Of a stretch of DNA of 64,000 nt, positions 208-58,228 are shown one piece after another. Position 1 is the first letter of the stretch. Each line of letters starts with the position of its first letter. The translations under genes were made by a program, and so were the position numbers. A model generated the notes under the pieces. It had not been told where the DNA came from. It ran no database searches and worked only from the letters and a program-made list of their open reading frames with translations. Source of the stretch: Catajapyx aquilonaris (taxonomy: Eukaryota); assembly GCA_000934665.2 (NCBI GenBank), contig JYFJ02000732.1:1-64000 (forward strand). The letters are read 5' to 3'.

Positions 208-468
208 CCCACTAGTCCTTCCAGACCCCACTGCCAAAGGGTCTTCTTCATCATCAACCTCCCCAGACATGGCCACCACCATCTCTTCCTCCTCCTCCTC
301 CTCCTCCTCCTCCGCTTCCTCCTTCTTGATCTTAAGGAGAGTGTCATCTACAAGAGTAGAGTCCCCATCAAAGCAAGAAGGGGTCTCCTCCTTCAAGAGA
401 ATCTGCCAGGTCTGCTCTGTTGTGATCTCATCTTCTTCCTCCTTCTTTACCTTCAGGATCAAAGACAT
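208..468 (-). CDS. Cassette 1 acidic exon (partial gene; downstream exon outside window)
   Basis: Acceptor tttgcag|GGCCATG; MSLILKVKKEEEDEITTEQTW...EEDPLAVGSGRTSG; phase-0 donor GGG|GTATGT. Confidence 0.8.
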
Positions 469-612
469 GGCCCTGCAAACACAAAGAGTGGAAGTCATGT
501 AATCATGCTAAGTACCAGTTCCAATTAGAAGGAGATACGAGACCTGGAAGAATCCCAATTCCCTTTTAAGGCCGATCAAACCCCTTCTTCTTTCCCGAGG
601 AGACTAGAACAC

Positions 613-666
613 GGCGGCCATCTTGGATTCCTTCTTTTTTTATTATGCAAATGAGGGTGCGTTCCC
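613..666 (-). promoter_or_regulatory. Cassette promoter 1
   Basis: GGCGGCCATCTTGG (YY1-like), ATGCAAAT, GGGTGCGTTCC (+ strand reading). Confidence 0.75.
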
Positions 667-1125
667 ACTGCCGCACAAGGGTGGAAGGACGGGCTTCTGC
701 GCTATCCATCTCCTCTGAACAATCGCTGCTACTGATGCAGAACTGCTACTTTCGTTATTCACAACGCGCTCGACTAGTCGCGTTAAAAAAAAAGGACCCG
801 AGACATCCATCGAGGTATTGTTGCGCCAGGACATCCCATGGGAACTAGGAGATCGGGTATAAATATAAATTCTGTAGAAGAATAATAAACAGTGCTTTTT
901 TTTATTTTAGAGAGAGAGAATGGCATACACCGCTATTATTTATGGAACCGACTACCACAGGGTCATCTTCAACCACCTCAGTCAAATTGGCAAATATCAC
1001 AAGATGTCTCTCCCCTGTATGAATTTGAATGCGAATATTCCAACATGATAAAGGCTTTTCACTAATGGCTTCTGAATCCTGAATGACTTCACATGACATT
1101 TCCAATTATGGGATAACAAACAAAA

Positions 1126-3264
1126 TTATGGCGCAGCAAAACATTGAAGTTTCTCTCCTGTATGGATTCGCATGTGAGATTTCAAATTACTTGAATCACG
1201 GAATTTTTTCTGGCACACCTCACAGGGGAACGGTTTTTCTCCCGTATGAATTTGCATGTGAGTCTTCAACTTACTTGTATCACGAAATTTTCTCTGGCAG
1301 ACCTCACAAGTAAAGGGTTTGTCTCCCGAATGAATTTTCATGTGCTTTTTCAATGTATCGGAAGCACGAAATATTTTCTGGCACACCTCACAAGTGAATG
1401 GTTTTTCTCCGGTATGAACTCGCATGTGAATTTTCCAATTACCTGGACGATTAAATGTTTTCTGGCACACCTCACAAGCGAATGGTTTTTCTCCGGTATG
1501 AAGTCGCATGTGCATTTTCCAATTACCTGGAAGATTAAATGTTTGCTGGCACACCTCACAAGTATATGGTTTTTCTCCTGTATGAATTGGCATGTGCTTT
1601 TTCAATGTACTTAGATCACTAAATTTCTTCTGGCAGACCTCACAAGTGAATGGTTTTTCTCCTGTATGAATTCGCATGTGCTTTCTCAATGTACTTGAAT
1701 CACTAAATTTTTTCTGACACACCTCACAAGTGAATGGTTTTTCTCCTGTATGACTTCGCATGTGCTTTTTCAATGTACCTGGACAACTTAATTTTTTCTG
1801 GCATATATGGCAGCAGTTTCTTTCACTGTGAGTTACCATGTGAATATTCATATCATGCAAAGTACCAAAGAATTTCTTGCATATTATGCACTCAAATGGA
1901 TTTCTTCCATCACGTATTCCCCTGTTAATTTCCTCAAGGATCCCATCCTCTTCTGCTCCGCCTTCAGTTTCCACTTGCACAACCTGGAAAGTGAATAACA
2001 GTGCATTAATTTTGTTTATTCATGTGAATTATTCATGTGATTAGTGTGATGCTGTCAATAATATCTCAGTGGTAACGTGTTGCAAATTGCAAAGTTGACT
2101 GTTTAAATGGTTTTAATTTTCTTGCGGTGATGTGAAGAGGTATTCTGTGTAAGTGTAAATGCCAGGTTATGGGGTATCGCGTCGTTGTTTACTTACAACG
2201 GCGCGATACATCATAACCTGGCAACAACAGAACCGTTGTTCACTATCCGCACATCTCCTAGGAGGCGGACTTTAGTTGCTAGATGGCTCTGCTGCTGCCA
2301 GGTTATGGCACATCGCTTCGGTGCTTACTATCCGAGCACCATCTGTCAACAAAACAGTCCGCTCGCAAATTTTACAAACAAACGTTCTAAAATATAATTA
2401 CGATGTACCCCTACCTTTACCAGCACTCCAACAGACCCGGGCAATGCCGGGTAACCTGCTAGTATAATAATTATAGCAGAACTCTTTGGCTTAGACTCAT
2501 CAGCTGTTTAGTTCTGCATGAACCCAAATAAGTAGTTTGGTTCTGGCTCAACACTCAAGATAAATCATTGTCACAACCATGCCAAACCACTGTTCCGCCT
2601 TCGGGTGCAAGTCCAGGGCGGAAAAGGGCTCATCAGTGTCTTTTCATGGAGCATAAATGTCTTCCCTTTAATATCACCTTTCACATTTCCATGGAGATGC
2701 CACCGCTTCGCAAAGGAAGTACAACATGTCAACAATATATTGAACTTGACCTAAGTAAAGATGGTGGCCTCCCACGGCCTGCCCACTGACCAGTGGGCCT
2801 GCTTCAGCTGTGAAAATGAAAGGATAGGAAGCCATGTATCTAGATATACATATTATAGCAGAACTCTTTGCTCGTAACTCCTCTCCCTAATGAACATGGA
2901 TATGGGGATGAAATCACACGAACAAAAACCGCGTTACATTGTGTAATTTGCTGCGACCTTAGTGTCAAATGTTATATTGCCTTTTCAGCAGATTGCTTAC
3001 TTCACTATTCCTTCCAGAACCTCCTGCCAAAGGGTCATCTTCATCATCAATCTCCCCGGGCATGTCCATCACCATCTCTTCTTCCTCCTCCTCTGCTTCC
3101 TCCTCCTTCTTGATCTCAAGTGGAGTGTCTTCAATGAGAGTATCATCAAAGCAAGAAGTGGCCTCCACCTTCAAGGGACTCTGCCAGGTCTCCTCTGTTG
3201 CGATGTCCTCCTCCTCCTCCTCCTCCTCCGCTTCTTCCTTCTTTATCTTCATCATCAAAGACAT
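1126..3264 (-). CDS. Cassette 2: acidic exon + C2H2 zinc-finger protein (9 fingers)
   Basis: Exons 3264-3001 (GAA|GTAAGC) and 1983-1126 (ttccag|GTT), both phase 0; TGEKP linkers; decayed finger remnants at about 1000-1100. Confidence 0.9.
2435..2462 (+). mobile_element. Helitron-like 3' terminus in intron
   Basis: Hairpin ACCCGG-GCAATG-CCGGGT followed 6 nt later by CTAG|T; 5' end not located. Confidence 0.55.
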
Positions 3265-3548
3265 GGCCCTGCAAACACAAGAGTGGAGGTCATGCGATCG
3301 TGTCAAGTACCACACAAATCATGGCAGCTGAAGAGGAGGAATATTTCTATGGGCAAAGGAAAGCAAATTAGATTATCAACAAACATACCACTGTTCTACT
3401 ACAACTTCCCTGCGACTGCACCTCTCCGTATGTGTGTCCAACAGCACCCTTCGACGGTCACCCACCCTTCCTCCTCCTTGTCAGGGACACTTCAAGAGAG
3501 CCAAGGCATAATCTGCGCCCTCGGGAGAGAGACGATCGATGCTCATCA

Positions 3549-3607
3549 GGCGGCCATCTTTGATTTCCTCTTTTTCTTTTTTAAAAATGCAAATGAGGGT
3601 GCGTTCC
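3549..3607 (-). promoter_or_regulatory. Cassette promoter 2
   Basis: GGCGGCCATCTT, ATGCAAAT, GGGTGCGTTCC. Confidence 0.75.
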
Positions 3608-4304: not shown

Positions 4305-4500
4305 CTCAGGGCTCCTCAACCACCCTGGACATGGCCACCACCATCTGTTCCTCCTCTGCTTCCTCCTCCTTCTTGATCTCACGAAGCGTGTCTTCCATGA
4401 GAGAAGTCATTGTCCAACCATGGGTGGTGTTTCCTCTTCTAAATGTGACTGCCAGGTCTCCTCTGTTGTGATGTCATCTTCTTCCTTCTACCTCATCATT
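4305..4500 (-). pseudogene. Decayed copy of the acidic exon
   Basis: EEDDITTEETWQSHL and EDTLREIKKEEEAEEEQMVVAMS lie in different frames with stops; resembles the cassette 1 and 2 exons. Confidence 0.7.
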
Positions 4501-4501
4501 T

Positions 4502-6289
4502 TCATCCAGAACTTGTCATCAGCGGGTAGTTGTTGCTCAGGTATGTCGTCAGCGCTAAACGTATATCTTCAGCATTACCTCTTACTGCCCAATTGTTCCT
4601 CGCGTCTCGCACTGGAGGGTAATCTACTTCGACCGCTTGTAACTCTTTCAGCCATTCCTCATCAAAGAATTCTCCACGTTCCTCAACAAAGTTGTGAAGA
4701 AAACAGCATGCAGCAACCACTTTTGGTATGAACGTGTGGTGGATCTCCATCCGTTTGAACAACACCTTCCACCTCGCCTTGAGACGTCTCACCGTGAGGT
4801 CTACCACAGAGTGTCCTTGGTTCAGGTAAAAGTTGAAGGATTCCTCTTCAGGTGATAACTGCCCACGATCTGGATAGCCCTTGATGAGCCACGGAAGAAG
4901 AGGATGAACAGAAGCACCAATAAGGAAAAGAGGTATTTCTTCTCCCTCCACAGTGATTGGTCCCTGATTCAAATGAGAGAAAAAATTATGAACATCATGC
5001 TGCTGGCCATGCTTACACGTCTATCGTCACCTTGGGTAGTTTGTGAGCTGATTTGAACACATGTGATTCTCGAAGCACTCTTCCGTCATGGTCTGATCCA
5101 GGTGCCTGGCAGTTGATGTTGCGAATTCTATTGGGAAGAAAACAAAATTTGCTTAGTGCCTGTAGAATTGCAATAATAATATGACATGCAACATTTCTAC
5201 AATCTGCATTTTGTATGTACCTTAGTGTGTCATCCACAACCAGTTGAAGCACAACAGAGGCCCAATTCTGCTGGTTTATGAATTCACTGCGAGCATCTGT
5301 TGGCGGCATAATTGGTATGTGGGTGGTGTCGATGCAGCCCCATATCTGCGGAATGTTGCAGCGCTTCCTAAACCTGGCAGCAATTCTTTTGGCTTCCTCC
5401 TCGTGGGGTATGGACACAAAGGTCCGCAGCACTACATCGACCACCACTTTGCAAAAGAGTCTGAAGAATTTTCTTGCTGTTGTTCTACACACCCCAAATG
5501 CACTGGCCATTGCCTCCATATCACAACAGTTGGCAAGTTGGTACACAGCCATGGCCATCCTCTTCTCAAGGGACACTGGCTCACGCAAAGAGGCTTGACT
5601 TGGTGACATGTAAGGTCGCAAAAGGTCACAGAGCTCAAAAAAAGTCTCCCTTGTCATCCGGAAATTTGCAATCCAGTCCTTTTCTTGAAACTGTTGGCAG
5701 ACAGTCACCTCCCAAAACACACCCTCCCTCTTCTTCATCCATATCTGTCGCTCTCGGCGACAAGTTAAGGCCATAACAGGTCGAGGATCCATCAAATCCA
5801 TTGCTGCGGTTGTCCATTGCAATTGATGGGAAAGGAGCAGATTTAGCCTACGAGCTCTACGCCTCCTTAGCATGTCCATGAAACACCTGAGCTGGTCATT
5901 CTGTATCAGTTGCACACCAGCCACAACAGTGACTATGTACAGTTGCATGATGGCAAATATTGCCAGCAGTTCTTCATACGTCTGACTTGCAACAGGCACA
6001 GCTACTTGCTGAAATGATTCCGTATTAGTGACTGCTGCTGTGTCTACGATTCTTGCTGTTAACGTACCTGGCTGGCGCTTTCCTGCACAGCCACTGTTGG
6101 TTCATCCGCATCAGTGGCTGGCATGGCTACCACCGATTCTTCCGCTTCCATCTTAACCTCAGCAGGAGCGTCTTCGGTTACAGTTGATGCATCATCACAG
6201 TTAGAAAGCGCTTCCACTTTCACAGCCAGCCTCCAAGCATCCATAGCCTCTTCATTTTCCTCCTCCTTGGCAGTCACCTCTAGCGACAT
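4502..6289 (-). CDS. Cassette 3: acidic exon fused to Harbinger/HARBI1-like nuclease (probably catalytically dead)
   Basis: Exons 6289-6068, 6008-5221, 5127-5031, 4963-4502 with compatible phases; motifs NFRMTRETF, GCIDTTHIPI, GSDHD, RLKARW, ACCFLHN. Confidence 0.85.
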
Positions 6290-6631
6290 GTTCCTAGAAA
6301 ACAACCACTGATCAGAGGAACCATCAAATGAAAAGACTTTGGTGCAATGGCTGCACGTCCAGGAAGCAACCAAAATAATTCATTTAGTTGTACTCAAAAA
6401 TGACCTTGTCTTATTGTCGGGTGGGAAAAGCAGCAAAGACGTTGGGCAGCACCACGATTCAGAACAATATTACCTGCTGGACATTGGCCAGTGGCACTGG
6501 CTTAATACCTCACAACATGTTCCACTCACCCTGAGGAAGACGCACCAGTGTCCATCAGATGAATGGAGTCGAGGAAATCGGGAAAATACTTACAATTAAC
6601 CCGAAATCGACGAATTTCCAAGACTTTTCAT

Positions 6632-7010
6632 GGTCGCCATCTTTGAACCGGATGTTTGGGAGTGCGTTCCCACCGCCGGCCAGTCGCATGAGAACCGATG
6701 GAACAGAAGTAACGTCGCGGTTAAAATTCCCCGTGATATTCCCTTTTTAGAACCGGATGTTTGGGGTGCGTTCCTACTGCCGCCAGGCTCATTATTGCTA
6801 AGCATTATTAACAGAAGTAACGTCGCGGTTAAAATTCCCTTCTGAGAACCGGATGTTTGGGGTGCGTTCTCACCGCCGGCCAGTCGCATTGGAGATTGGA
6901 ACAGAAGTAGCATCGCGGATAAAATACCCACCTTTGAACCGGATGTTTGGGGTGCGTTCCCACTGCCGCCAGTCGCATGATAACAAAAGTAACGTCGCGG
7001 ATAAAATTCA
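6632..7010 (-). promoter_or_regulatory. Cassette promoter 3, with a four-copy tandem amplification of a 75-105 bp unit
   Basis: One GTCGCCATCTT, then GAACCGGATGTTTGGGRGTGCGTTC...GTCGCGG(T/A)TAAAAT units at about 6645, 6750, 6846 and 6936. Confidence 0.8.
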
Positions 7011-7390
7011 CTGCCGCCGCAAAGGAACAGTTATTTCAATTAACTAGTGTTACACGTTAAACTGCTAACCGCTATAGCAGGATCTTGTGACGAATTCGGG
7101 AAACAAATGATTAGCATTTAATTCCAGGCACTTGACTACGAGGTCAAGTAGCAGAAAGGTATGAATATACACGCAAGATTCACATGCAATTAGGATGTAA
7201 ACATATGTCACGGCGGTTAATTGAAAATAAAAATAATATATCAATGGAAAGATGTTCTAAACTTTTTCATGATGTCAAACACTGATGTTCGATAATTCCG
7301 CCTCAGCAAAAAATGATTTGTGTTAGGAAATTTTTATTGAAGTTTGTTACGATTGTAATGATCAGTTTGCAGACTTTGAGTATATCTTCA

Positions 7391-7876
7391 TCACAGCCTG
7401 TGGAGCAATCTTCTGTACTTTTCAACCTCTAGTCTCAATTTCTTGTTCTCTTCTTTGGCCTCCTTCAGCTCTTTCATGAGTTGCTCTCTGGTGCTTCCCC
7501 TCCTTTTCTTACACCCACTTACGACACTTGAAGAAGTACTAGTGATAGACTCCAGGATGTGGTTACAATCCACTGGGCTACGTCCTACATGTCTCAACAC
7601 TGCTTCACCGTCCTTCTGGTTTCGCCTACGTTTTCTTGCCCTCTCCTGCCATTCCTTCCTGGTCTTTCTCTTCTCCAGATCGGTCATGTCAGCTATCTTT
7701 TTCCTCGCAGTTTTCTTCCTTCGAGCATCTCTTCTCTTCACTTCCTCATATTTTTCAGAGTTTGCTTTTAATTTTTCTCTTGCACGTCTCATGCTCAACT
7801 TCCTCGTTTCTCTTCTCTTTGCCAATTCTTTTTCTGTTAATGTCTTGTGCTTTGTTCTTCTGATCTTGGCAGAGAC
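7391..7876 (-). CDS. Orphan terminal exon: basic K/R-rich helix plus coiled coil; candidate alternative last exon of cassette 4
   Basis: Acceptor tttcaag|GTC in phase 0, open to the stop at 7391; no promoter or acidic exon of its own. Confidence 0.55.
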   Translation of the reverse strand, partial: VSAKIRRTKHKTLTEKELAKRRETRKLSMRRAREKLKANSEKYEEVKRRDARRKKTARKKIADMTDLEKRKTRKEWQERARKRRRNQKDGEAVLRHVGRSPVDCNHILESITSTSSSVVSGCKKRRGSTREQLMKELKEAKEENKKLRLEVEKYRRLLHRL

Positions 7877-8275
7877 CTTGAAATTTAAAAAATACGAACT
7901 GTATCATGATTGTTTTCAACATGCTTATTAGTAGCTACAAGCTGGATGACTATCCCCATCAAAAATATACATGCAGTTAAGAGTACAAAGCTAATAAGTC
8001 TATGCAGAACTATGGCACAGTGTGGCACAGGGTAGTATAGACACTAAACAGCTAGAAGCTAACACTAACTTTTATTACGGTATATGAATTTAGCCTCTTT
8101 TTTTTGGCTCAATGACCCCTTTAAAAATCAACACAAATTTAGAGTGCAAGAGCCTAGAGCACTGCTACACATAAGCCTTACTAGTTATTTACTGTACTGT
8201 ACAAAAAGTAAGAAACGAATCCTAAAAGCTACAAAATTTAATAGTAACAAAAGCTTACATTTTACAATCGAAATT

Positions 8276-10959
8276 TTACTGTGGCTGGACCTGGACCATC
8301 TCAGACTCTATCGATTGGAAGTGATGGCGGTTTGCCTTTAAAAACATGAGCCTCTCAAAGTTGTTATCTGAGAGCGCAGCCGTCGATATATCTTTGCCAA
8401 TTGGGCAATGGGGCCCAACTGCAGCACTGGCCGGGATGGCAGTGTTGTATCTGATGAACAGATCTACGAAGATCTGCTCACCCAAAAAGGCTGCGTCAGT
8501 GAGGACCTCCTTTGAGCCAGCCTCCAACCAGGTCTTCACCATGTCCTGGGCTTTGGACTTGAGTGACCTGCGGCTGCTGCTCTTCACGGAACGAGTGACA
8601 CTGCTGAAGAAGTCTTCTTCTTCGTCCTCATCGCTGGTGCCGCTGCGGATGCCCTCCTCACTGCCACTGGTCTCCATCATGGCTCTCTCCACAGCATCCT
8701 CCATGCCCTTCTTGACCCTGGTGAGCTGGCTGTTGTCATACTGCTGCAGCCAGAAGAGGCGAAACCTGGGGTGGAAGGCAGCAGCCAGCTGGCACTCCTT
8801 GTCTTCCATGAGAGGCCCAAACCTCTTTGCGATTCCTGCCAGGATGACGTCTACCAGATGACTGCAGTACTGGAGGCGTTTCGACTTGACCTCCTTCAAC
8901 TTTATGACGGTGGCGGCTACAGTTGGCAGAAGGCTCCCGAGATAAGCCTGGTTCTCCTCTTGGATCTTATCCAAGGCCTTGGCAACACTGGACATTACCT
9001 GGGCGTACTCCTTCAGGAAGCCAATGTCACAATCAGTGAAGGTCTGCAACTGTAGCTGCATCATCACCCTATCCACATCTTCCTTCTTCTTCTCTAGCAT
9101 GTTGTTGAGGTGAACAACAGAATCGTACGTCGAGTTCCATCTGGTGCAGTTGGGAACCACCAGCCTTCTCTGCAACGCATCCAGAATGGTGTCTGCCGCC
9201 ACAGTGCTGCGACTCTGCAGGTTCCACAGCGCCTGTGCCTTGGACATGGCCATCCTGTAGGCTGACTTGAACGAAGCACAATGAAGAGCCTCATGGGTAT
9301 CCATGCTGGCTACCAAATTGAATGTGTGTGCTGCGCACCTCATGTGCACTGGCAGGTCCGGGCTGCTGGACTTCTCAAGTGCGGCATCAACAGAGATGAA
9401 ATCCACTTGGTCCACATCCTCCGAATCCTGTTCCATATCCTCGACTCCCTCAGGATCGGCAGCTGACTCCAGAATGTCTGGCATTGGCACAAGTTCAGTG
9501 CCAAAATGCGCAAACGTCTTCACCACGTTGCTGCCGTTGTCAGTGGTAGTTCTGGTCACCTTGTCCTGAAGGTGGAACTTGTGATGGTTGTCCACCATGG
9601 CCTGGGTGAGAACATCCGATGTAGGTTGTCCTCTGAGCGGAGAGCAAGCCAGGACGGCGTATTGTCTCTTGCGGGTCTTGGGGTCAATCCAGTGTGCCGC
9701 CATCTCAAAAAACCACCTGTTGTGGGCCGACCAACAGTCCGCGGTGGTTGCCACCCAAGAAACATCCTTCAGTGATCTGTAATCGAAAATTTTAAATGGT
9801 AAAGAGAAAGACTAACCAGACAAGTTTTGAGACAGAAAAGCAAAAATAAACATGTATAATAATCATATTAATTAATAATTTATAAAACGTACCTCATAAC
9901 ATATTCCTCCAGCTGTTTATGGTTGGCCGAGATCCTCTTTCCCAGTGTGAGGCGGGACATCGATGTCATGCCGGGGTTGAGTGTTTGGATGAGGCTGACA
10001 AAGGTGCGGGACTCCACTACATGCAGCGGTAGCATGTTGCAGACGAACAGGTCCACAATCTGTGTGTCCACCACAGACTGAAGGACGCCAGCGCCAGGCC
10101 GTAATTGGCCAAACGCCTCGCCAAGGGTGGACTGGCGTGGCTTCTTTGCAAGTTGTTGTGACAACTGGCTGCTGTTCTCGCTACTGGTACAGCTACCAGA
10201 TGATTTCCTGTGGCTGGGTCTCCCACGGGAAGAGCCGTCCTGAATCTTCTTCTGAAACAGGACGTCATGGGCTGGGTGTTTCCTTTTGATATGGGACTTC
10301 AGGTTGTAGAGGCTCGTCGCCTGTCCCTTTATGGTGATCTCCTTCGGCTGGCACAAGATGCAGCAGAAGTACAAGAGATTTGTGTTCTTCTGATCTCTTG
10401 ACTTCAGGACAAAGTAGTCCTCCAGGTGGGGCCACGGGTTCCCACTCTTCCCAGCTTGAGAAGCCGCAGTTGCTGCAGGCTCCTCAACAGACTTACAATT
10501 AGTTAGAACTACACTTAGCGGAAGCCACTAATAGCTTTCAAAGTAAACGCTAATAGCGTCACTAATTAGCGGAACCCTGCCCACCACTGCATTTTCCCCA
10601 ACTATTAGATATCGATGTTTTCAATAAAGTGCAGTGGCACCCACTTTGTGCCGTTAATTGAAAGGAAGTTTAATATGTTACTTCGCGTCTAGTTATTTCA
10701 TGCCATACATTGCCGACATAATTACCTCGCAGGACATTTCCTGAGTAAAGGCTACGGGGTGGCCTCCGCTGCCAGGTTTTGTTGCAACCGGCTCTTCATC
10801 TACAGCCTCCTCCTCCTTAATGCTTCCATTAATGATGTACGCATCATCATTGAAGCATGGCGGTGCGGTATCCTCCTTCACGGCCAATCTCCACGTTTCT
10901 TCCGTACAAATCATCTCCTCCTCAGCTTCCAACTCCTCCTTCTTGATTAGCAGATCCAT
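8276..10959 (-). CDS. Cassette 4: acidic exon fused to BED finger + hAT transposase-derived protein (ZBED-like)
   Basis: Exons 10959-10726, 10491-9893, 9776-8276 in frame; BED finger CILC...HIKRKH; TADCW, TDNGSN, CAAH, TRWNS. Confidence 0.85.
10500..10589 (-). mobile_element. Residual hAT transposon end in the intron before the BED exon
   Basis: CAGTGGTGGGCAGGGTTCCGCTAATTAG with CGCTA/TAGCG subterminal repeats; no clear partner TIR or TSD. Confidence 0.55.
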
Positions 10960-11200
10960 CGACGTGTTCCTGGAAATCAATCACTGATCAGAAGAAAATG
11001 CAGCACAAACAGTAGACTAGGCTTGGTCTTTCCGCCAGCGCTGCCACCATACTCTAGATTAAACCCTGAATAAAAGTTGACCCTTGACCTCCCCCACACT
11101 CTACTCACCCTGAAGAAAGACCTGCAGAGTCCGCACGAGCAGTAAAATGAAATAAACCCAATAAAATCAATCGGAAATCAGCATTTCTTGATCACAAATA

Positions 11201-11240
11201 GGTCGCCATCTTTAAAGTGACGTCACGGGTGCGTTCCCAC
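11201..11240 (-). promoter_or_regulatory. Cassette promoter 4
   Basis: GGTCGCCATCTT, TGACGTCA palindrome, GGGTGCGTTCCCACC. Confidence 0.75.
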
Positions 11241-13499: not shown

Positions 13500-13784
13500 C
13501 TTGTCCTTAAGAAAAAAAAGAAGGAGCTTGTCAAAGAAACAAAACCTTTTGACAAAACCAGAGGCATTCATTTGATTCCAGCTCATCAGTGAAGCTCCTC
13601 ATGATGATCACACATGATGGCCGATCAAACGAAAGCAAATTCCACTTCCCTTTCAACGTGCACACTTGCCCCTCACCTTGAAGAGAAAAGCGGTCGAGTC
13701 CAGCGGAAGTTCAGGCCCAGAGGAAACGAAGAAAAGACGACCGAATCAAGCCCAAAAGCACGAGTCTTCGGCGGAAAAAGAAAC

Positions 13785-44623: not shown

Positions 44624-44920
44624 GGTCTGAAAATCCAAGTTTGTGAAAACTCTGGCTGTGTCACATGTAGGACTATCACCCTAATAATTTCAATCTCCTC
44701 ATCACAAGTTGTCAATGACATTCCACCCTTATGTTCACTTCCTGGTCTATTAATGCATCCCTATCATAGTGTCCATTCCCACTGCCGGTTCTCCCCCAAC
44801 ATACCGACAGTCCGCTGCTCATCCTCCAGCGGCTGAAGCCCCTTGTTCTGCAGGGAAGCCCAAGAAAACGAGCAGGAAACGCCCCAAAGAGAGTCAGTCT
44901 CAAGGTTCTTCCCTACAAGT

Positions 44921-44989
44921 GGAAGCCATCTTGGATCAGATGCTTTAGGGTGCATTCGCATCGCCATGGTCCTACTGTTCCCCTGTCCA
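44921..44989 (-). promoter_or_regulatory. Cassette promoter 16
   Basis: GGAAGCCATCTTGG, GGGTGCATTCG, CTGTTCCCCTGTCC. Confidence 0.7.
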
Positions 44990-46768: not shown

Positions 46769-47009
46769 CCTGTAAAAAAACATCATAAGGTCAGATATTC
46801 ACACACTTGTTGTGCTGATTACATCACACTGCACTACCTTTTTCTTCAACAATCCACCGGTTTATCTCCCCTGCCGCGTGTGTCCTTGCCCATTGCACTG
46901 TTCAACCTCCAAGCCAGCTACTCACTCAGCTGCACAGTCCGCCTCCAGCTCAAAAATTGGCTCGGAAAATTAATAAAAGCCAGACCGAAAAACCTTCCGA
47001 ATCATGACA

Positions 47010-47080
47010 GGCGGCCATCTTGGAAATTATTGAGGTGCGTTCCGACTTCTGAACCAAAAAAAGAACCGTTCCCTTATCCA
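47010..47080 (-). promoter_or_regulatory. Cassette promoter 17
   Basis: GGCGGCCATCTTGG, GGTGCGTTCC, CCGTTCCCTTATCC. Confidence 0.75.
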
Positions 47081-47520: not shown

Positions 47521-49162
47521 TTATTTGACATGAGTCCACATATGTGCTTTTAAACGAGACTTCTGTCTAAACCTCTTCTGGCATACCTGGCAAAAAAGCA
47601 AACCGACATTTTTATGAGTCATAATGTGTTTCTTTAAATGGTCACTAGAAATAAAAGAAGCCCGACAAACTGGACAAGAAAGAGGACTTGTTTCCATGTG
47701 GCTCAGCATATGCGTGTTTAAGTCAGATGCAAGTGGAAACTTTTCCCGGCATGTCTGGCACGTAAACTTCCTCTCTTCTAAATGAGTCATGAAATGTTTC
47801 TTAAAAAAATAACTCGAAGTAAATGTCATTGCACACACATTACAAACAACAGTCATCTGTCCTGTGGGAGTTGATATACGCTTTTGCACAGGAGATGCAG
47901 GTGGTGAATTTACAGCACAAAATTGGCAAGCAAATATTTTCTCTCCCTCGTGATTCACCAGGTATACTTCAAAACTTGCTGACCAAATATACCTCTTCTG
48001 GCAATCTTCACATTTGAATGTCTTCTCTATCTCATGCTTTCCATTCTTCTCGTGCACTATCTGAAAAAAGTACAAGATCACTTGGTTACCCACTGAAATT
48101 AAAGTGTAATTGGCCCATCAGTGATCCTGATGAGTGACCTTGTGTGGTCCAGATGATGATCTTGGAAGGTCAGACCTCACAAATTAACAGACCAACAGGA
48201 TAATCAAGAGCCTTACAACCTATTTACTAACTTCTCTTAAGACAAAAGCCTTCTTAGACAGGTGTGATTGATTGACAGGTGTGAACCCAATTTATTAACA
48301 TTCAATTAAATTGTATTTTGTGTGCAAACATGTTAGGGAGCAAAAGTAATCATGTGTGTGGCACCACTCCCGTCAACCTGGACTTCCAACCACACTTACA
48401 TTAGTGTGTTAAGAGGTTTTCAGAGAATAAAAATTACCCCAAAATCATTACCTCTATTTCTGAGCTATCTCCATGCGTTCCCTTTGGCTTTCTGCAACCA
48501 TCTAACTGGTCTGGAGCTTCTTCTTTTGTGTTTGGCTGAACAATGGTCGGGAGCTGAACGTTATTTCTAATCGTGGTGCCATCCCTCCGAGACTCCACTT
48601 TAAATCCCTGCACCAGCTAAAAGAAAAATTCAGCACTTATTAGGTTTGCAACAAGAAAAAGCCACAACTGCAATGTCAAATGAATAACGGAGGGTAAGCC
48701 TCCAACCAGCCATATTTATGCTCCTTCTGCCTATAGTCACGCTATTGACGTGCGGCCATCGCATAAGTGCAAAACACACAGGTGTCATGTAAGTCCTTCC
48801 AAAGTACACACAATTTCCCATGTGAGTCATCAGCTTTAAAGTTTTGGGCTTTAAAGTTGCAAACTTGCAATTTTCTTCAAGTGGCCAAATGCTATTCGCT
48901 CACTGATGTGCTCCCAGATACGCACCATGCCTGGTGATGGGTCATGTCCATCTTTAGCGTCATCTGGTAAAACCATCCGGTCCTCTTCCGCCTCTTTTTT
49001 GATCACGTCCGCAAGGAGCTCCTCAATGATGGTCGACGTCTCATCGAAGCATTCAGGAGCCTCTTCCTTCATGGCCACTCTCCACGTCTCCTCCGTGGTT
49101 ATCACATCCTCCCCATCATCTTGTTCCTCCACCTCACTCTTGATCTTCAGAGTTAAAGACAT
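47521..49162 (-). CDS. Cassette 18: acidic exon + divergent C2H2 protein (4 intact + 2 degenerate fingers)
   Basis: Exons 49162-48926, probable 48616-48452 (55 open codons, phase 0/0), 48060-47521. Confidence 0.75.
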
Positions 49163-49369
49163 GATCCTGAAGAATCAAAAGTGCATATGTTACATTGGGG
49201 GGGGGCCGATTTGTCCGGGATCAACCGACCTACAGTTGCTACAGCTTCCAAATGACCCAGACTCACCCCGAGGCGGGTTCCCACCCAGGGGCGGCCCCTG
49301 GGAACTAGGAGGAAGCACGTTAAGATCAATTATTCTCTGGAAATCCGATGTAAAGTGACGATCAGATGT

Positions 49370-49436
49370 CGGCCATATTGTCCACGGTTGCTGGGGTGCG
49401 TTCCCATCCCCGCGCAAAGGACCGTTCCTTTGTCTA
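49370..49436 (-). promoter_or_regulatory. Cassette promoter 18
   Basis: CGGCCATATTG variant, GGGTGCGTTCC, CCGTTCCTTTGTC. Confidence 0.7.
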
Positions 49437-50675: not shown

Positions 50676-51617
50676 TTATTTATGTTCTGCATGAGTTGCC
50701 ATATGCCTCTTTAAATTACTTGCCTGCGTATAATCTTTATGGCACATTTGGCAAACGAATGGCTTTTCTCCTGTATGAGTTATGATATGTTTTTTCAAAT
50801 GAGAACTCGTGCTGAACTTTTTTTCACACTCATGACACTGGAATGGCTTTTCACCTGTGTGGGTCACCATGTGCGTTTTCAAAGCAGACCCCTGCCGAAA
50901 GGTTTTCAGGCACAACTGACACGCAAATGACTTCTCTCCCGTGTGAGTCATTCTGTGTGTTTTTAAAGTACCAGCATGAGAAAATGTCTTCTGGCACACA
51001 TCACAAGCAAATGGTCTTTCCCCTGTGTGACATCTGATATGCTCCCTTAAATGAGAAGCCTGATAAAACCTTTTTGGGCACACATTGCATGTAAATGGTT
51101 CTTCACCTGTATGAAACAGCATGTGCTTTTTCAAGAAACGTGTCGTTCTAAACTCTTTCTGACACACATTACAAAATAACGAATTCTTTCCTTCACTTGA
51201 CCCACTCCTTCGTGGTGCGACTCCTTCTGACAGACTCCCATCATCTTCACTTTCTCGCACCACCTGGAAGACACATTAGGTGACTGACACTTGGATAACC
51301 AAATGGACTAACATATAATTACTTGAAAGTGCATAAATTGCCTGTTGCTACCCTACCTGATGAGCAGTGTCTTGATATGTTTCTGCTAGTGGATCATCCA
51401 TGTCGCCGGTGTCTTCTGGCATGATGGACATGATCTCTTCCTCTGATTCCTCCACCTTAACCTCCCTCGTCCCATCTTCTGTGTCAGGTGAAGACTCGTC
51501 AGAAGGACTTTCCTGCTTCAACTCCTCCTCCTCCTCCTCCTTTTCTGCCTTCACGTTGACTACTTCACCTTTCACCTCCTCCGGCACCTCCTCCTCGATC
51601 CTTAGCACCGACGACAT
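50676..51617 (-). CDS. Cassette 19: acidic exon + C2H2 protein (6 fingers)
   Basis: Exons 51617-51357 and 51263-50676. Confidence 0.9.
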
Positions 51618-51739
51618 GGTCCTACTAGAGAAGGGCATGTTTACAACCTATAAATTCGCATCCCGGTCTCTCCAACTGAGGAAGCGAGGATCAGCGACGG
51701 AAAAACAAACCAATATTCGATCCGAGTCAATCAGTCGCA

Positions 51740-51816
51740 GCGGCCATCTTGGATCAGCTGAAGTGGGGTGCGTTCCTACCAGTGACGACAGAAACAGAAG
51801 GAACGTTCCTTGTCCA
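51740..51816 (-). promoter_or_regulatory. Cassette promoter 19
   Basis: GCGGCCATCTTGG, GGGTGCGTTCC, CGTTCCTTGTCC. Confidence 0.75.
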
Positions 51817-52412: not shown

Positions 52413-53520
52413 TTATGCATGTCCTGCATGAGTCAACATATGTCTCTTTAAATTACATGCCTGACTAAACTCCTTATGGCACAATCGGCAAACAAATGGC
52501 TTTTCTCCCGTATGAGTTACCATGTGTGATTTCAAATAAGAAGCCAAGCTGAACTTTTTCTCACACACATGACACTCAAATAGCTTTTCACCAGTGCCAG
52601 TGTGGGTGACCATGTGAACTTTCAAATTGGAAGCCTGCCGAAAGGTTTTCAAGCACACCTGACAAGCAAATGACTTCTCTCCTGTGTGAGTCATTCTGTG
52701 AGTTTTTAAATTACATGCATGAGTAAACTTCTTCTCGCACACATCACACGCAAATGGTCTTTCGCCTGTGTGACACTTCATATGCTCCTTTAAATGTGAT
52801 GCCCGATAAAACTTTTTTTGGCACAGTTGGCATCCAAATGGCATGTTTCCAGTGTGCGTCATCATATGCTCCTTCAATTTAGCCGATTCAATAAACCTTT
52901 TCTCACAGAGTTGACAAGAAAAGGGCTTTTCTCCCGTGTGAATTAGAAGGTGAGTTTTTAAACCAGTTGAGCGAGTAAACCTCTTCTGGCACAAATGACA
53001 ACTAAACGGCTTTTCTCCCGTATGAACCGTAACATGTTTTTTCAAGTCACCTCTTAATCTAAACTTTTTCTGACACACGCTGCAGGTAAATGGTTTTTCG
53101 CCCGTGTGAATGAGCTTGTGGTTTTTCAAAACACCTGCTGCACTGAACTCTTTCTCACACTCCTGACAATAAAATGATTTTTTTCCTTCACTTGATCCAT
53201 GACTTTGTGGCGGGACTCCTTCTGTCGCACTCCCATCATCTTCACTTCCTTGCACCACCTGGAAGATGCATTTTATTAGTACTAGGTTAGCCAGGTCTCA
53301 TGCGTTTCCTGTTGCCAACCTGACGGGCGTCTTCTGCCAATGGGTCACGTGTGTTTTCAGTGGCTTCCGGCATGACGGACATCTCTTCCTCCAGCTTAAC
53401 CTCCCTGGTCCCATCTTCAGAGCTAGACTCATCAGAGCCCGAAGGAGTTTCCTGCTTCATCTCCACCTTCCACTCTTCCTTCACGTTGACTACTTCATGT
53501 CCAACCTTCTCCTCCTCCAT
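52413..53520 (-). CDS. Cassette 20: acidic exon + C2H2 protein (9 fingers)
   Basis: Exons 53520-53320 and 53258-52413. Confidence 0.9.
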
Positions 53521-53667
53521 GGTCCTAAAGAAGAATTTGCTCATCAAGGTCATGTGTACAACATCGCAAGGGAACCCTTGCCTTCCTATGTTTGGCAGCC
53601 GCGTCTCTCCAACTGAGGATCAGACCCTTAGGAAAAACCACTGGAAAAACAGAGTCAATCAGATGCA

Positions 53668-53746
53668 GCAGCCATCTTGGATAATATATCAGCTGGGGTG
53701 CGTTCCTACCAGCGACTACAGAAACAGATGGACCGTTCCTTGTCCA
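53668..53746 (-). promoter_or_regulatory. Cassette promoter 20
   Basis: GCAGCCATCTTGG, GGGTGCGTTCC, CCGTTCCTTGTCC. Confidence 0.75.
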
Positions 53747-54487
53747 GTCATTTCGATGAGATTAACCGCTAATCATATAGCTCCTGCACTAGCCGTTATT
53801 GCTATCGCATGCTGCTTTTCACACTAATTTATTAAGAACTTGTGCCCTGCCTGCCCGGCTAAGGGACAAGAAAGGCCTGGCTTTCTCCTCCCAGCGTACC
53901 CCCAAAAGGACAAGACCACAGTTCTGACTACCAACCGCTTTTAATCCTCATCTGCATACTACACATCATACGTACATACCGCCTTTGGCCAACAGTCGGG
54001 CAGTGCCCCTTGCTACAAACACACTCTTCAAAAAACACAGGCCAGTCTCTCCTTCGACCACACCAACCACACCCTTGTCTGGCTCACACTTTGCTCTACC
54101 TCAGCTGGTCCTTACTCTGCCCTTCTTCCTGTGACCCGTCTCCCCCAAGCCTCTGTTAGCTGGCTCCCCTATCAGTCCCTGCTGACCAGATGTCCCTGAC
54201 CAAATTATAGACGTCTGAAGCACTTTTAAAAGGAAGTAATAAATATTATTATTCTGGCAGTTACTGGTGTTGTTTTGCAATTTTCTTCATACAGCCTGTC
54301 GGTTGTGGGTGCAAAATGATGTCAAAATCCAGGTCAGCGATCTTGCAAACAATGGAAGCAACCTTTACAATTCATTTCCATGGTATAGTTTACAGGGTAA
54401 CATATTTTATGGTGACGTTATTTCCCACTCACACTACTGTGCGGCGGGACTTTGATGGCAAGAACTGGGTCAGTTCCTAAAACTAAG

Positions 54488-55954
54488 CTATTTATCAGCA
54501 ATTTTATTCAATACTCCCAACAACTGACCCATGAGGTTCTTATTATCCTCATGGGCTTCCCTGAGCATGCGGAGGGTTTCTTGATGCTGCTGCTGCTGCT
54601 GCTGTAGCGCTTCTCTTAGCACCGCCACAATTTCATCCTTCACCCTCTCTGCAGCACTCCCCTTGAATCTTTTCCTCTTCACCACAGGTGGTAGCGCTTC
54701 TCTTTGCACCGCCACAATGTCGTCCTTCACCCTCTCTGCAGCACTCCCCTTGAATCTTTTCCTCTTCACCACAGGTGTTCCAAGTCCTGAAAGGATTTCC
54801 TTTATGTCGCATGACCACAATTCGGAGGCTATTGACACAGACACACCTAGGTATAGCACAGATGCTGACGAATCCTGAGTCATACCAGATGAGTTCCTGC
54901 TGGAGCTCCGCACACTGTCGTCAGAGCAGCCACTGGTGCTGGAATGGCTCCCTGTGGAGAATACAAATGCATCAGTTGTAGCTGTTACAACTAATCGGTC
55001 GTCTGCTGGGAGTGCTCCAACAGCTCCAGTGCGCAGTGGGCCACTTTGGATTAGAACTAGCTCCACTTTTAGGTGCAGCAAACGGGGCGCAAGGTTACCT
55101 CCAGCTCCCAGGATGGTGTCCTGGATGGCTAGTGGTGTGACATTCGGCCTGTCGCCCATAAGCTCCTCCATCTCATCTTCATATGGACATGTTCTCCTGC
55201 CATTTCCACTTTTGGAGTTGTGGTCCTTCACTCGCTTGTATGCACATTGCAGGGTTTTCCACCGACCCATCACTTGGGCAGTGGAATACGCAACACCTGC
55301 AGTGGCTTTGACTGAGTCTATCACCATCTGCCATAGGTGTTTTTTTTTTGTATCTTGGACTTGACCACTTCTCCCCCACCTCCTTCCACGCTGCGATGAG
55401 GGCGAGTGTGGCACGGCGACCCCAAACTGACACGGAAAACAGCCATTAGATACTTTCAACACCGTCGTTACAACAACTCCTCTGGTTCTCATAATACTGC
55501 AACATGGCACGTAATGGGACAGTGTCAACTCCATTGCGGTCACCAGATTTTCCTTACCTTCAGCATGTGTGCTACTCCCTTGTACTCCCTCCTATTGCCT
55601 CTTTCACTGCATGCACAGTTCTTTCATGTTGACAGTCCTACCTGTTCCTGTCACAGCCTCACTTGGGCAACTGCCTCCTGTCTGTGGCACATTCTCCGGT
55701 CCCCTGTGTCCTGTCTCTGGCACATTGTCTTCACTCGTATTCCTGTTGCCAACCTGACGGGCGTCTTCTGCCAATGGGTCACGTGTGTTTTCAGTGGCTT
55801 CCCGCATGACGGACATCTCTTCCTCCAGCTTAACCTCCCTGGTCCCATCTTCATAGCCAGACTCATCAGAGCCCGAAGGAGTTTCCTGCTTCATCTCCAC
55901 CTTCCACTCTTCCTTCACGTTGACTACTTCATGTCCAACATTCTCCTCCGACAT
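54488..55954 (-). CDS. Cassette 21: acidic exon + trihelix/Myb-SANT-like domain + coiled coil (one frameshift in an A10 run; possible pseudogene)
   Basis: Exon 55954-55642 (phase 1) joins the acceptor at 55426: WGRRATLALIAAW...YKKK/HLWQ...RWKTL..AYKRVKDHNSKSGN...PYEDEM. Confidence 0.65.
54604..54777. repeat. 87-bp coding tandem duplication
   Basis: PVVKRKRFKGSAAERVKD(D/E)IVAV(Q/L)REAL occurs twice. Confidence 0.9.
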
Positions 55955-56105
55955 GGTCCTAAAGAAGAATTTGCTCATCAAGGTCATGTTTACAACAACA
56001 TCGCAAGGGAACCCTTGCCTTCCAATGTTTGGCAGCTGCGTCTCTCCAACTGAGGATCAGACCCTCAGGAAAAACCACTGGAAAAAACAGAGTCAATCAG
56101 ATGCA

Positions 56106-56181
56106 GCGGCCATCTTGGATAATCAGCTGGGGTGCGTTCCTACCAGCGACTCCAGAAACAGATGGACCGTTCCTTTGTCCA
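56106..56181 (-). promoter_or_regulatory. Cassette promoter 21
   Basis: Near-identical to promoter 20. Confidence 0.75.
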
Positions 56182-56933
56182 GTCATTTCGATGAGATAAA
56201 CCGCTAATCATACCGCTCCTGCACTAGCCGTTATTGCTATCGCATGCTGCTTTTCACACTAATTAAATGTTGAACTCAAGGTGGTTAATTAATTTTAATT
56301 TAAGTGCGGCTCGGGTCAGGTCCAAATATTCCACGAATCTGTTTGACCATGTAACAGTACATTTACATGCAAGTACTTTTATTTTCTATAAATTTATATT
56401 TTTTGATAAGTTTGTGACACAGAATGCGACCTCCACTTTCGGAATGTCTGCCCCGAAATAAAAACATACTGGCCCCTACACTCTTATAAAAATTCCTCAG
56501 CATTGGTAAGGTATGACCCTCTTTGCGCATTATTCTTAAAGTCATGAAAGCAAATTAAAAGTGTTCCTCTTGGCGTGACCTGGATGACAAGTGTTTGTGC
56601 TGCAGCGGAAAATGAAGAGAGCGGATGTCTTATCTGGTAACAAATATCAGCACATAAACTGGGTATGGCTTTTTATAGGAATGACGATATTTTAAAAAGA
56701 GAGTATAATGTATCTCAGTAATGAATTAGGTGCGTTTATTAATCTTTAATCAGGTCCATGTACCAACTGGATCACTGCGAAGTAAAATTACATGACCGCA
56801 TGCACCACTTGTGCGACTTGGAATTACTTTTTTTCATACATACACACATACATCACATAGCTGTACTTATATAGAATATTATTGTTGTTACCATCATTGT
56901 CTTTCCCAGATGTTACACTTGCTTAAGACCTTC

Positions 56934-58011
56934 TCACCTTGTGTGAGTCTTCATGTGATTCTTTAGAACTTTTGCCCAACCAAACGTTTTGTGGCACACT
57001 TCACAAACAAATGGCTTTTCACCTGTGTGGGTTACCATATGAGATGTTAAGTGATCAGCCCGATAAAACCTCTTTTGGCAACATTCGCAGCTAAATGGCA
57101 TATCCCTAGGCACTTCACCTGTGTGAGTACGATTATGTATTTTCAATTTAGATGCATCAGCAAACTTTTTATCACATAATTCACAAGAAAACGGCTTTTC
57201 TCCTGTGTGAGAGAGCAGGTGTCTGTTTAAATTAGACCTTTGAGTGAACCTTTTCTGGCACACAGGACAACCTAATGGCCTCTCACCTGTGTGAACCATC
57301 ATATGCTTGTTCAAATCACCTGTTAATCTAAACCTCATCTGGCATAGGTCGCAAACAAATGGCTTTTCCCCAGTGTGAATTAACATGTGTCTTTTCAAGC
57401 CACTGGCTTGTCTAAACTTCTTCTGGCATAAATGGCAAGCCAATGACTCTTCCACTTCATGTGTCGTGTGATTTTGCACTTGGGTCAAATCCCTCGCTTC
57501 TTCCTGAAAAATAAAAAATTACGTTTTCAGTGCATGGATATGAGCCAAACTTTTGGCCAAAATAGTATCACAATTTCAGTTAAAGACATCATTACACTTC
57601 TTGTCATAAATTCTGTACTGTTATATGAATAGTTATTAGCTCTGTGCATAATGCGCATATCCCATTACAATATTATTACAACTTAAGCAACATTTTGTCA
57701 TTCCATTTGTGTTGCATTTTAGTTGATTGACAACGAGCCCTTAACGTATGAGTTCTTACAAGGTGAGCGTTGCCGGTGCTCCCATGAGTAACAGCCAGTG
57801 GATCATCCATGTCGCCAGTGGCTTCCGGCATGACGGACACCATCTCTTCCTCCACCTTAACCTCCCTGGTCCCATCTTCAGCATCATCAGACTCATCAGA
57901 GCCCGAAGGACTTTCCTGCTTCACCTTCCACTCCTCCTTTTCCATCATTACTCCGTCTACTTCATGTTCCTCTTCGACTTCCTCCTTGATCCAAAGCACC
58001 TCCGATGACAT
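56934..58011 (-). CDS. Cassette 22: acidic exon + C2H2 protein (6 fingers)
   Basis: Exons 58011-57760 and 57503-56934, phase 0. Confidence 0.88.
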
Positions 58012-58179
58012 GGCCCTGCAAATAATAATAATTGCTCATCACGCCTTTCCCTTCCTTTCGCCATTGACTCACCCTGTAGCTGCAGCTCCTTTCCAGGCGA
58101 TCCAGGATCAGCTCCAGGCAAACCCGGCGGCCCAAGCGCAATTATTCAACCCGCAAAAATGAAATCCGCCCAACGGACA

Positions 58180-58228
58180 GGCGGCCATCTTTGATATGCA
58201 AATGACTGGGTCGCATTCCCATCGCCGC
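58180..58228 (-). promoter_or_regulatory. Cassette promoter 22
   Basis: GGCGGCCATCTTTG, ATGCAAAT, GGGTCGCATTCCC variant. Confidence 0.7.

Follow-up and report, generated by a model that had tools for sequence, protein, structure and literature searches.

The 64,000-nt stretch of contig JYFJ02000732.1 that we analysed (hereafter the window) carries, from position 208 to about 58,217, a single tandem gene cluster of 22 units, all of them on the minus strand. Each unit opens with a copy of the same promoter, and at 21 of these promoters there follows one copy of a homologous acidic exon. Further downstream lies a C2H2 zinc-finger exon in 15 units and an open reading frame (ORF) of transposon type in five; the partner of unit 1 falls beyond the edge of the window, and the remaining promoter copy belongs to a NAA20-like gene.

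The promoter box GGAACGCACCC, with at most one mismatch, occurred 21 times in a scan of the window, 21 of 21 on the minus strand, compared with 0.35 occurrences expected from dinucleotide-preserving shuffles, none of which (0/100) reached 21. The box CAAGATGGC was found exactly 16 times (0.84 expected) and the longer box TCCAAGATGGC, with at most one mismatch, 19 times, again all on the minus strand. Two boxes about 20 nt apart form pairs, and this pairing defines 22 loci, which bears out, far above the shuffled level, the 22 co-oriented promoter copies claimed in a preliminary description of this DNA. The high ends of the paired motifs, all on the minus strand, are as follows.

Loci 1 to 8: 665, 3607, 6960, 11237, 13827, 16999, 19405, 22745
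Loci 9 to 15: ~27872, 29740, 32269, 34320, ~37256, 40176, 42039
Loci 16 to 22: ~44958, 47043, 49404, 51776, 53706, 56140, ~58217

Alignment of all promoter loci brought out two further common upstream boxes, ATAGCGGTTAAT and ACAAGGGAACGG, and the module promoter is thus a multi-box one that includes, in this order, GGTGGGAACGCACCC, a spacer of about 20 nt and TTCCAAGATGGCSGC. Located 3' of the AAGATGGC box is a non-coding exon 1 of about 100-120 nt, ending in many units with CAGG/gtgagt (the slash marks the splice junction), then a short intron of about 90 nt in the subfamily at 29-40 kb and longer in units 6 and 8. The ATG stands 4-6 nt past the acceptor of this intron of the 5' untranslated region (cag/GGCCATG), and the acidic exon is therefore exon 2. 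The non-coding exon 1 and its short intron add to what had been described before. In unit 3 the first promoter box is present as four tandem copies of about 100 nt that are 75-83% alike (6670-6960 within 6596-7030). In units 6 and 8 about 790 nt separate the promoter from the ATG, and a conserved basic ORF lies there (16586-16942 and ~22300-22600, minus strand; MD..ATLGTRxxKKN...YWKNRR); it stops at a GT, has no Pfam match and may be either an extra upstream coding exon or an upstream ORF.

The acidic exon was followed with a hidden Markov model (HMM) built from 14 exons of the window and searched against the 1593 six-frame ORFs of at least 25 aa. The model matched 22 ORFs, 22 of 22 on the minus strand, 14 of these matches being the seeds and hence circular. 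The other matches comprise six full exons (31615, 55607, 48854, 6062, 10696 and 27396; E from 2.8e-34 to 9e-7) and two pieces of a remnant listed below. The 21st exon (46706-46768), of 21 codons, was missed by the HMM and recognised solely by the alignment of its start, MSFVAVMIKREAEDEE. The exons encode 49-136 residues, 27-40% of them Asp or Glu, with the consensus MSLxLxIKKEExEE ... TEETW ... KEETP ... DDST ... VKEExxEEELVVxMPDxxDDxDDPLAVxxxxTNE, and a phase-0 GT is found in 21 of 21, near the conserved end ...DPLAxxxxTNE/GT. HMM, alignment and GT phase are thus all in accord with the earlier statement that an acidic exon, nearly always with a phase-0 donor, accompanies 21 of the 22 promoters. 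In units 10-14 the position of the donor is uncertain by 12 nt, both candidates being in phase 0, and the better one, 12 nt upstream, is likelier. In unit 14 the usual final codons hold a TAG stop (39674-39700, minus strand), so that the upstream donor alone can serve; a GTAAGT donor is found there 9 nt past the DPLA motif. The exon of unit 11 (31624-32031, minus strand) has its second half duplicated internally and carries two VKEE...DDLDD tails.

Of the 17 pairs of paralogous exons computed, 15 yielded a ratio of nonsynonymous (dN) to synonymous (dS) divergence, which was 0.24-0.57 in 14 of them and 1.01 in the other; of the two further pairs, one had a dS of 0 (dN 0.038) and one a saturated dS. 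The exon is thus a coding sequence that evolves under mild constraint. A described domain family to which the exon might belong was looked for in Pfam (two exons, E<=0.1; zero matches) and with a profile against 1.84 billion representative proteins (0 matches) and was not found; a word search in longer proteins gave 0 of 7999 candidates, low complexity weakening both the profile and the word search. The top score in the ESM Atlas was 0.87, under the lead level of 0.9, a search of Rfam returned 0 matches, and we found no paper describing this acidic exon.

Fifteen ORFs downstream of the acidic exons have Pfam zf-C2H2 matches, and all 15 finger exons start at a strong ttt(c)cag/G acceptor in phase 0, as expected from the earlier claim of 15 in-frame C2H2 partners. 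In each of these units the acidic exon would be joined to one exon of 3-11 fingers, giving a protein made of an effector and an array. The intron from cassette to finger exon measures 57-1017 nt (13 units with a set donor), the arrays hold 106 fingers in total, and residue entropy in the fingers is highest at helix positions 2, 3 and 6, which are the DNA-contact positions. The arrays of units 6 and 12 look degenerate or truncated. The finger units, together with unit 1 and the remnant, are listed below, all on the minus strand.

1-665, minus: unit 1; promoter motifs 617-665, acidic exon 208-468, partner exon off the window
1126-3607, minus: unit 2; promoter 3553-3607, acidic exon 3001-3264, 1017-nt intron, C2H2 exon 1126-1983 with 10 fingers
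4318-4484, minus: acidic-exon remnant; two HMM pieces, frameshifted, without promoter, its DNA ~71-74% identical to the exons of units 1 and 2
14599-16999, minus: unit 6; promoter 16956-16999, acidic exon 15855-16172, C2H2 exon 14599-15087 with 3 partly degenerate fingers
17924-19405, minus: unit 7; promoter 19368-19405, acidic exon 18809-19039, 129-nt intron, C2H2 exon 17924-18679 with 8 fingers
25721-27872, minus: unit 9; promoter ~27839-27872, short acidic exon 27432-27578 without the DPLA tail, C2H2 exon 25721-26749 with 11 fingers
28286-40176, minus: units 10-14, one subfamily; promoters 29740, 32269, 34320, ~37256 and 40176
29232-29492, 31624-32031, 33822-34088, 36748-37008 and 39674-39931, minus: acidic exons of units 10-14
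28286-29089, 30733-31485, 33184-33681, 35602-36588 and 38979-39506, minus: C2H2 exons of units 10-14
40848-42039, minus: unit 15; promoter 42007-42039, acidic exon 41646-41852, 57-nt intron, C2H2 exon 40848-41588 with 8 fingers
42929-44958, minus: unit 16; promoter ~44925-44958, acidic exon 44363-44623, C2H2 exon 42929-43585 with 7 fingers
47521-49404, minus: unit 18; promoter 49371-49404, acidic exon ~48926-49162, C2H2 exon 47521-48060 with 4 fingers
50676-51776, minus: unit 19; promoter 51776, acidic exon 51357-51617, 93-nt intron, C2H2 exon 50676-51263 with 6 fingers
52413-53706, minus: unit 20; promoter 53706, acidic exon 53320-53520, 61-nt intron, C2H2 exon 52413-53258 with 9 fingers
56934-58217, minus: unit 22; promoter ~58184-58217, acidic exon 57766-58011, 262-nt intron, C2H2 exon 56934-57503 with 6 fingers

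The 57-nt intron of unit 15 contains no stop and keeps the frame, acidic exon and fingers forming one ORF (40851-41987, minus strand), so that intron retention would still yield the full protein.

We then considered the nature of the acidic exon. An AlphaFold2 model computed from the 21-row alignment had a mean predicted local distance difference test score (pLDDT) of 59.7, a predicted template-modelling score (pTM) of 0.13 and no secondary structure, and on this model the exon is best read as a disordered region with short motifs, unlike KRAB, ZAD or BTB. High acidity, embedded hydrophobic residues and disorder are typical of acidic activators. With its content of Asp and Glu, the hydrophobic residues inside its acidic runs (EEELVVxM, TEETW) and its predicted disorder, the exon could thus be a classical acidic activation domain or a solubilising linker, the proteins activating or merely occupying their targets. 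We consider this unlikely, though it is the chief alternative to a SUMO-dependent repressor. The motif ψKx[D/E] holds 64 of the 119 lysines of the 21 exons, compared with 9.6 +/- 2.9 in 2000 shuffles (maximum 20), and 37 of 62 in a less redundant subset of 12 exons (4.7 expected); an activator has no need for 54% of its lysines to lie in such sites at three conserved positions. In addition, KRAB and FiNZ, which are the corresponding N-terminal exons in large families of finger proteins, repress (PMC10547256, in the excerpted text).

The surroundings of these sites are also of a recognisable kind. At least two acidic residues occur within the next six at 47 of the 64 sites, the three conserved ψKxE lysine positions are mostly followed by acidic patches, and in 20 of the 21 exons a site lies inside the first 15 residues, 19 of these behind a hydrophobic cluster; the tail of the exon, EEELVVxMPDxxDDxDDPLA, is itself hydrophobic and acidic. 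Classical, acid-patch (NDSM, a sumoylation motif dependent on negatively charged residues) and hydrophobic-cluster patterns of SUMO acceptors have been published (PMC3816760, as excerpted), and the acidic-exon sites fit the NDSM type (ψKxE plus downstream acid), conjugation itself being a prediction. This SUMO-consensus composition had no place in the preliminary description and is an addition to it. SUMO-dependent recruitment of SetDB1/Wde is a silencing route in Drosophila (bioRxiv 10.1101/533091, abstract). We therefore propose, by way of hypothesis, that the acidic exon may act as an effector that is SUMOylated, read by a SUMO-dependent corepressor, or both, and that would thereby silence the DNA bound by its partner.

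The 22nd promoter copy drives a gene of another kind, situated between units 4 and 6.

11978-13827, minus: unit 5; promoter 13787-13827, NAA20-like N-acetyltransferase with ATG at 13499, exon to ~13368 and last exon 12367-11978

This gene has the same boxes, the same non-coding exon 1 and intron, and an ATG just past the acceptor, without the acidic exon. Either the acidic exon and the regulatory part of the module are separable, or the promoter was borrowed, by the NAA20 gene from the acidic module or the reverse; the sharing of the cluster promoter by this gene is a further addition to what had been noted. The last exon of the NAA20-like gene is the sole conserved host sequence in the window. 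Among its best 120 protein matches the first is at 88% (Timema), every named row among the first 61 is an arthropod (insects, branchiopods, shrimp, spider, millipede, horseshoe crab), and the first non-arthropod is a clam at 79%. The host is therefore probably an arthropod, one absent from the protein set searched; a fish, considered at first, was rejected on these matches. The NAA20-like gene also raises the question of whether the 22 promoters are simply of a general housekeeping type, with a YY1/Pho-like box (AAGATGGCGGC, whose likeness to the YY1 consensus is our assumption) and partner boxes, inherited perhaps from the resident NAA20. It is in favour of this idea that the NAA20-like gene has every box and arranges exon 1, intron and ATG in the same way. 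In contrast, the DNA that flanks the motifs aligns between units as paralogous, which makes the promoter copies products of duplication irrespective of the factor that binds them. We regard a general promoter as possible, if somewhat doubtful.

Five cassettes stand directly 5' of transposon-type ORFs, and they derive from at least four different cassette lineages. The corresponding units, and the transposon ORFs found beyond the cluster, are the following.

4502-6960, minus: unit 3; promoter 6636-6960, acidic exon 6068-6289, proposed 59-nt intron CAG/gtacgt ... tttcag/CAA, Harbinger-type DDE nuclease ORF 6008-4502
8276-11237, minus: unit 4; promoter 11203-11237, acidic exon 10726-10959, proposed 234-nt intron GAG/gtaatt ... 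tgtaag/TCT
8276-10491, minus: partner exons of unit 4; BED-finger exon 10491-9886, AT-rich intron of ~100 nt, hAT transposase body 9778-8276
20230-22745, minus: unit 8; promoter 22710-22745, acidic exon 21618-21947, THAP ORF 20610-20230
46310-47043, minus: unit 17; promoter 47014-47043, acidic exon 46706-46768 of 21 codons, a 75-nt intron proposed in frame, and the ATG-initiated helical ORF 46630-46310
54488-56140, minus: unit 21; acidic exon 55754-55954, Myb_DNA-bind_4 ORF 55426-54488 of Myb/SANT type (Pfam E 6e-9)
59181-63483, minus: ORFs of transposon type outside the cluster, none of them behind a cassette; a second hAT whose dimerisation domain is intact (E 2e-20), an integrase carrying rve and Znf_SCAND3 domains, and an unassigned ORF

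A partner derived from a transposase or transposon domain was found in four of the five units, as DDE_Tnp_4, THAP, Myb_DNA-bind_4 and hAT. The nuclease of unit 3 matches Pfam DDE_Tnp_4 (E 5e-12; ORF 4502-6101). Its frame is broken at ~5013-5020, where an intron with its own GT and AG is the likely reading, and the ORF is open across GT-AG introns. At 4760-4800 (minus strand) it reads LIGASVHP. We take active Harbinger/PIF nucleases to carry LxGDxxYP at the second catalytic Asp, so that LIGASVHP may indicate a loss of catalysis.

The hAT transposase of unit 4 (8276-10527) has 66 protein matches, the best at 71% identity to a 735-aa BED-hAT protein of Homarus americanus; after it come fishes (64-66%), then beetles, moths and a flatworm (35-53%), and the matches include an octopus record. 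The zf-BED match is weak. Similarity to the lobster protein extends over residues 31 to 727 of its 735; it sets in 3 nt from 10491, the proposed acceptor, and is broken by no stop or frameshift, one AT-rich GT-AG intron apart. This hAT family is distributed patchily over crustaceans, fishes, insects, the octopus record and the flatworm and has the look of horizontal transfer. Gene predictions from the isopod Armadillidium nasatum (P0064) and the poeciliid fish Poeciliopsis prolifica (isoform X3; P0008) place the same family after different N-termini that are likewise acidic and rich in IKEE. The hAT ORF also has an acidic loop, TELVPMPDILESAADPEG (8276-9811, minus strand), that resembles the tail of the acidic exon. 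That the acidic exon arose from the N-terminus of the hAT protein or from its acidic loop is rejected for now, as hhalign of the exon profile against three hAT-family proteins gave non-significant E-values of 0.095, 0.55 and 0.28. Between the hAT gene and the unit 3 promoter, at 7391-7903 (minus strand), lies a 170-aa ORF rich in Lys, Arg and Glu with no family match.

In unit 8 the THAP domain is matched at a Pfam E of 6e-11 (ORF 20230-20673). This unit keeps the canonical acceptor at 21097, which opens a 50-codon truncated finger exon that ends in a stop; the segment 20658-20949 is homologous to the 3' flank of unit 7, and the THAP ORF begins where that homology ends. Unit 8 thus clearly derives from a finger gene. 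A three-exon reading, in which a GT at 21019 (GG in units 6 and 7) would give a 78-nt phase-0 mini-exon, is speculation.

In unit 21 the 525-bp cassette (55740-56264) duplicates 53306-53829 of unit 20 at 95.5% identity, the homology ending 14 nt into the 61-nt intron. Its exon differs from that of its parent by nonsynonymous changes only (dN 0.038, dS 0), and by its sequence the unit is a young construct of putative function. In unit 17 the ORF 46310-46630 matched no family and was not confirmed as a second Myb, Pfam giving nothing and BLASTP against the confirmed Myb ORF an E of 0.83; a single-sequence AlphaFold2 model had a pLDDT of 55.4 with helices, and Foldseek found no match to this model in the PDB at E<=0.001. 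The partner list of the preliminary description is thus retained for Harbinger, BED-hAT, THAP and one Myb, which match domains or the hAT protein, and its second Myb is left unconfirmed.

In these five units the transposon-type ORF takes the place of the finger exon, and the units may be host-transposase fusion genes formed by exon shuffling onto the phase-0 donor; splicing across the junctions is what we infer. Such fusion is in our view the most likely reading of their sequence. The ORFs of the BED and THAP domains have no ATG ahead of the zinc knuckles, and good splice sites bound the 59-nt intron at the junction of unit 3. Units 3 and 4 have acidic exons that share 36-39% identity with the reference exon and whose mutual dS is saturated, and these exons keep their ATG, open frame, ψKxE sites and phase-0 GT; they are old but have stayed intact. 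Around the five partners we observed short, chance-like inverted pairs and no convincing terminal inverted repeats. The case looks best for BED-hAT and Harbinger and weakest for THAP, since unit 8 has retained the canonical acceptor of the finger exons together with a shortened exon of that kind.

Several observations weigh against fusion and against the wider interpretation built on it. The transposon-unit acceptors were picked post hoc to fit the frame, with a one-in-three chance each. Scored with a matrix from 35 family sites, which is inflated by paralogy and was given little weight, the acceptors of units 3 and 17 reached 1.7 and 3.2, compared with 5.1-18.2 for the 35 family acceptors; those of units 4, 8 and 21 were outside the top 8 candidates, the unit 4 acceptor being a weak one (...tgtaag/). 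In unit 8 it is the canonical acceptor that scores 17.1, and it leads to the 50-codon dead-end exon. The unit 21 exon differs from its parent nonsynonymously only, and in-frame ATGs in units 3, 17 and 21 could start the partner ORF alone. Every large ORF of the window is on the minus strand, including the transposon ORFs beyond the cluster, and the co-orientation of cassettes and partners therefore says little. The NAA20-like gene shares the promoter and the 5' layout without the exon, and the promoter may be of a general type. The ψKxE excess could stem from repetition of an (I/V)K(K/E)EE unit that has another function, for example that of an acidic activation domain. Finally, putative relatives of the acidic exon outside the window were not found (profile, 0 of 1.84 billion; words, 0 of 7999).

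These points may be put together differently. The transposon ORFs would then be unfused, as ordinary insertions or independent genes in a fast-turnover cluster, their cassettes would be orphans left by deletion or partial duplication, and the real products would be the 15 finger genes and unit 1. Unit 8 is visibly a finger gene with a deleted array, in which THAP starts where the 3'-flank homology stops, and unit 21 is a 525-bp partial duplicate with dN exceeding dS; the promoter-less, frameshifted remnant at 4318-4484 shows that cassettes decay. The weaker acceptors, the start codons of units 3, 17 and 21 and the patchy, transposon-like spread of the hAT family (lobster 71%, fishes 64-66%, beetles and moths ~50%) point in the same direction. 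In contrast, the BED and THAP domains are not translatable from a start of their own ORF, the old exons of units 3 and 4 keep their ATG, frame, ψKxE sites and phase-0 GT, no inverted repeats flank any partner, and the hAT and Harbinger ORFs are intact across introns. The Harbinger motif, which looks altered, would also suit a non-mobile, retained gene. We consider unfused transposon ORFs rather unlikely, and we retain host-transposase fusion as the preferred reading. The earlier assertion that every junction checked keeps the frame holds for the 15 phase-0 finger junctions; for the transposon acceptors, which are weaker than those of the family, the frame was a criterion of choice. The assertion that one effector exon captures transposon domains is upheld for the position of the five cassettes and their at least four lineages, and is left conditional for the splicing and for the one unconfirmed partner.

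Altogether, these data lead us to propose that the cluster is a tandemly duplicated, lineage-specific transcription-factor family with a portable 5' module, an exon acting as a SUMO-dependent repressor and, most likely, host-transposase fusions, a proposal to which we give a probability of roughly 55%. The finger family itself, lineage-specific and with a new type of N-terminal exon, is real, and the several putative transposase captures are plausible. A bolder view would make of the cluster an arthropod system, neither ZAD nor KRAB, with a disordered SUMO-acceptor exon as effector, in which the portable module would have served as a gene trap that captured at least four transposon domains (hAT-BED, Harbinger, THAP and Myb) in 58 kb, a nursery of transposon-directed repressors and a SUMO-based equivalent, in an invertebrate, of the capture of transposases by KRAB; this we hold to be unlikely. 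To our knowledge large zinc-finger families need an effector, and few effectors are known (KRAB, SCAN, ZAD, BTB and FiNZ). The disordered, conserved, ψKxE-rich exon would be a concrete and testable candidate for both an effector and a pathway, from SUMO to SetDB1. Should splicing in the five units follow the proposal, the capture of transposases by effector exons of finger families would be specific neither to tetrapods nor to KRAB, and would be a general outcome of phase-0 effector exons in transposon-rich clusters.

We compared the cluster with known systems. Like the KRAB zinc-finger protein (KRAB-ZFP) clusters of tetrapods, it is tandem, combines a small N-terminal effector exon in a fixed phase with one fast-evolving C2H2 exon, and has pseudogenes or partial copies between live genes. 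It differs from them in that KRAB is absent, the exon is predicted to be disordered (KRAB is folded), the promoter is shared too and the host is probably an arthropod. Among the 82 minus-strand ORFs of at least 75 aa (82 of 203 ORFs, the 121 on the plus strand lying outside the scan), Pfam gave no KRAB (PF01352), zf-AD, BTB or SCAN match at E<=0.001, in agreement with what had been stated for KRAB, ZAD and BTB. The aligned acidic exons show no zf-AD cysteine pattern, and two of them gave no KRAB match at E<=0.1. The idea of a lineage-specific analogue of KRAB, also put forward in the preliminary description, is thus kept in respect of an N-terminal effector-type exon that precedes fingers and has no Pfam match, its transposon captures being conditional on splicing. 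Insects are without KAP1 (PMC6444547, in its excerpted text).

The FiNZ genes of cyprinid fish (Wells et al. 2023, PMC10547256, as excerpted) also have a short glutamate-rich N-terminal exon with no known domain and a single finger exon, in a very large lineage-specific family, and this architecture of one acidic N-terminal exon and one finger exon was found in 15 of 15 finger units. FiNZ has 28 residues and is reported, in the same excerpts, from cyprinids only, whereas the exons described here have 49-136 residues and a probable arthropod host, the comparison being one of architecture and description. The NAA20-like gene is nearest to those of arthropods, which argues against membership of the FiNZ-ZNF family. 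A literature search for a link between FiNZ and SUMO gave unrelated papers only among the matches listed.

With the insect ZAD genes and the hemipteran ZF271-like/APEZ expansions (PMC6444547, excerpts) the cluster shares a lineage-specific tandem expansion of C2H2 genes in an arthropod. It differs from the former by having no zf-AD and from the latter by its conserved N-terminal exon, ZF271-like proteins having no domain besides the fingers. For the hemipteran expansions the authors report, in the excerpted text, no extra domain and ask which co-repressor is used (PMC6444547).

Closest to the five transposon units are the host-transposase fusions of the KRABINER type (Cosby et al., bioRxiv 10.1101/2020.05.07.082677), in whose excerpted description an effector exon of a finger family is joined to a transposase exon with the acceptor just 5' of the ORF; DNA-binding parts of hAT, Harbinger-type and THAP/P elements are reused there and, on the proposed reading, here as well. 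In tetrapod fusions KRAB is the commonest host domain, and the acceptor lies just 5' of the transposase ORF in 8 of 9 cases (same source). That survey has a tetrapod scope, and the words 'invertebrate' and 'arthropod' occur 0 times in its text; here, in contrast, up to five candidate captures lie in one 58-kb cluster, with a non-KRAB effector and with splicing that is predicted. On this comparison the cluster is a probable invertebrate counterpart of KRAB-transposase capture.

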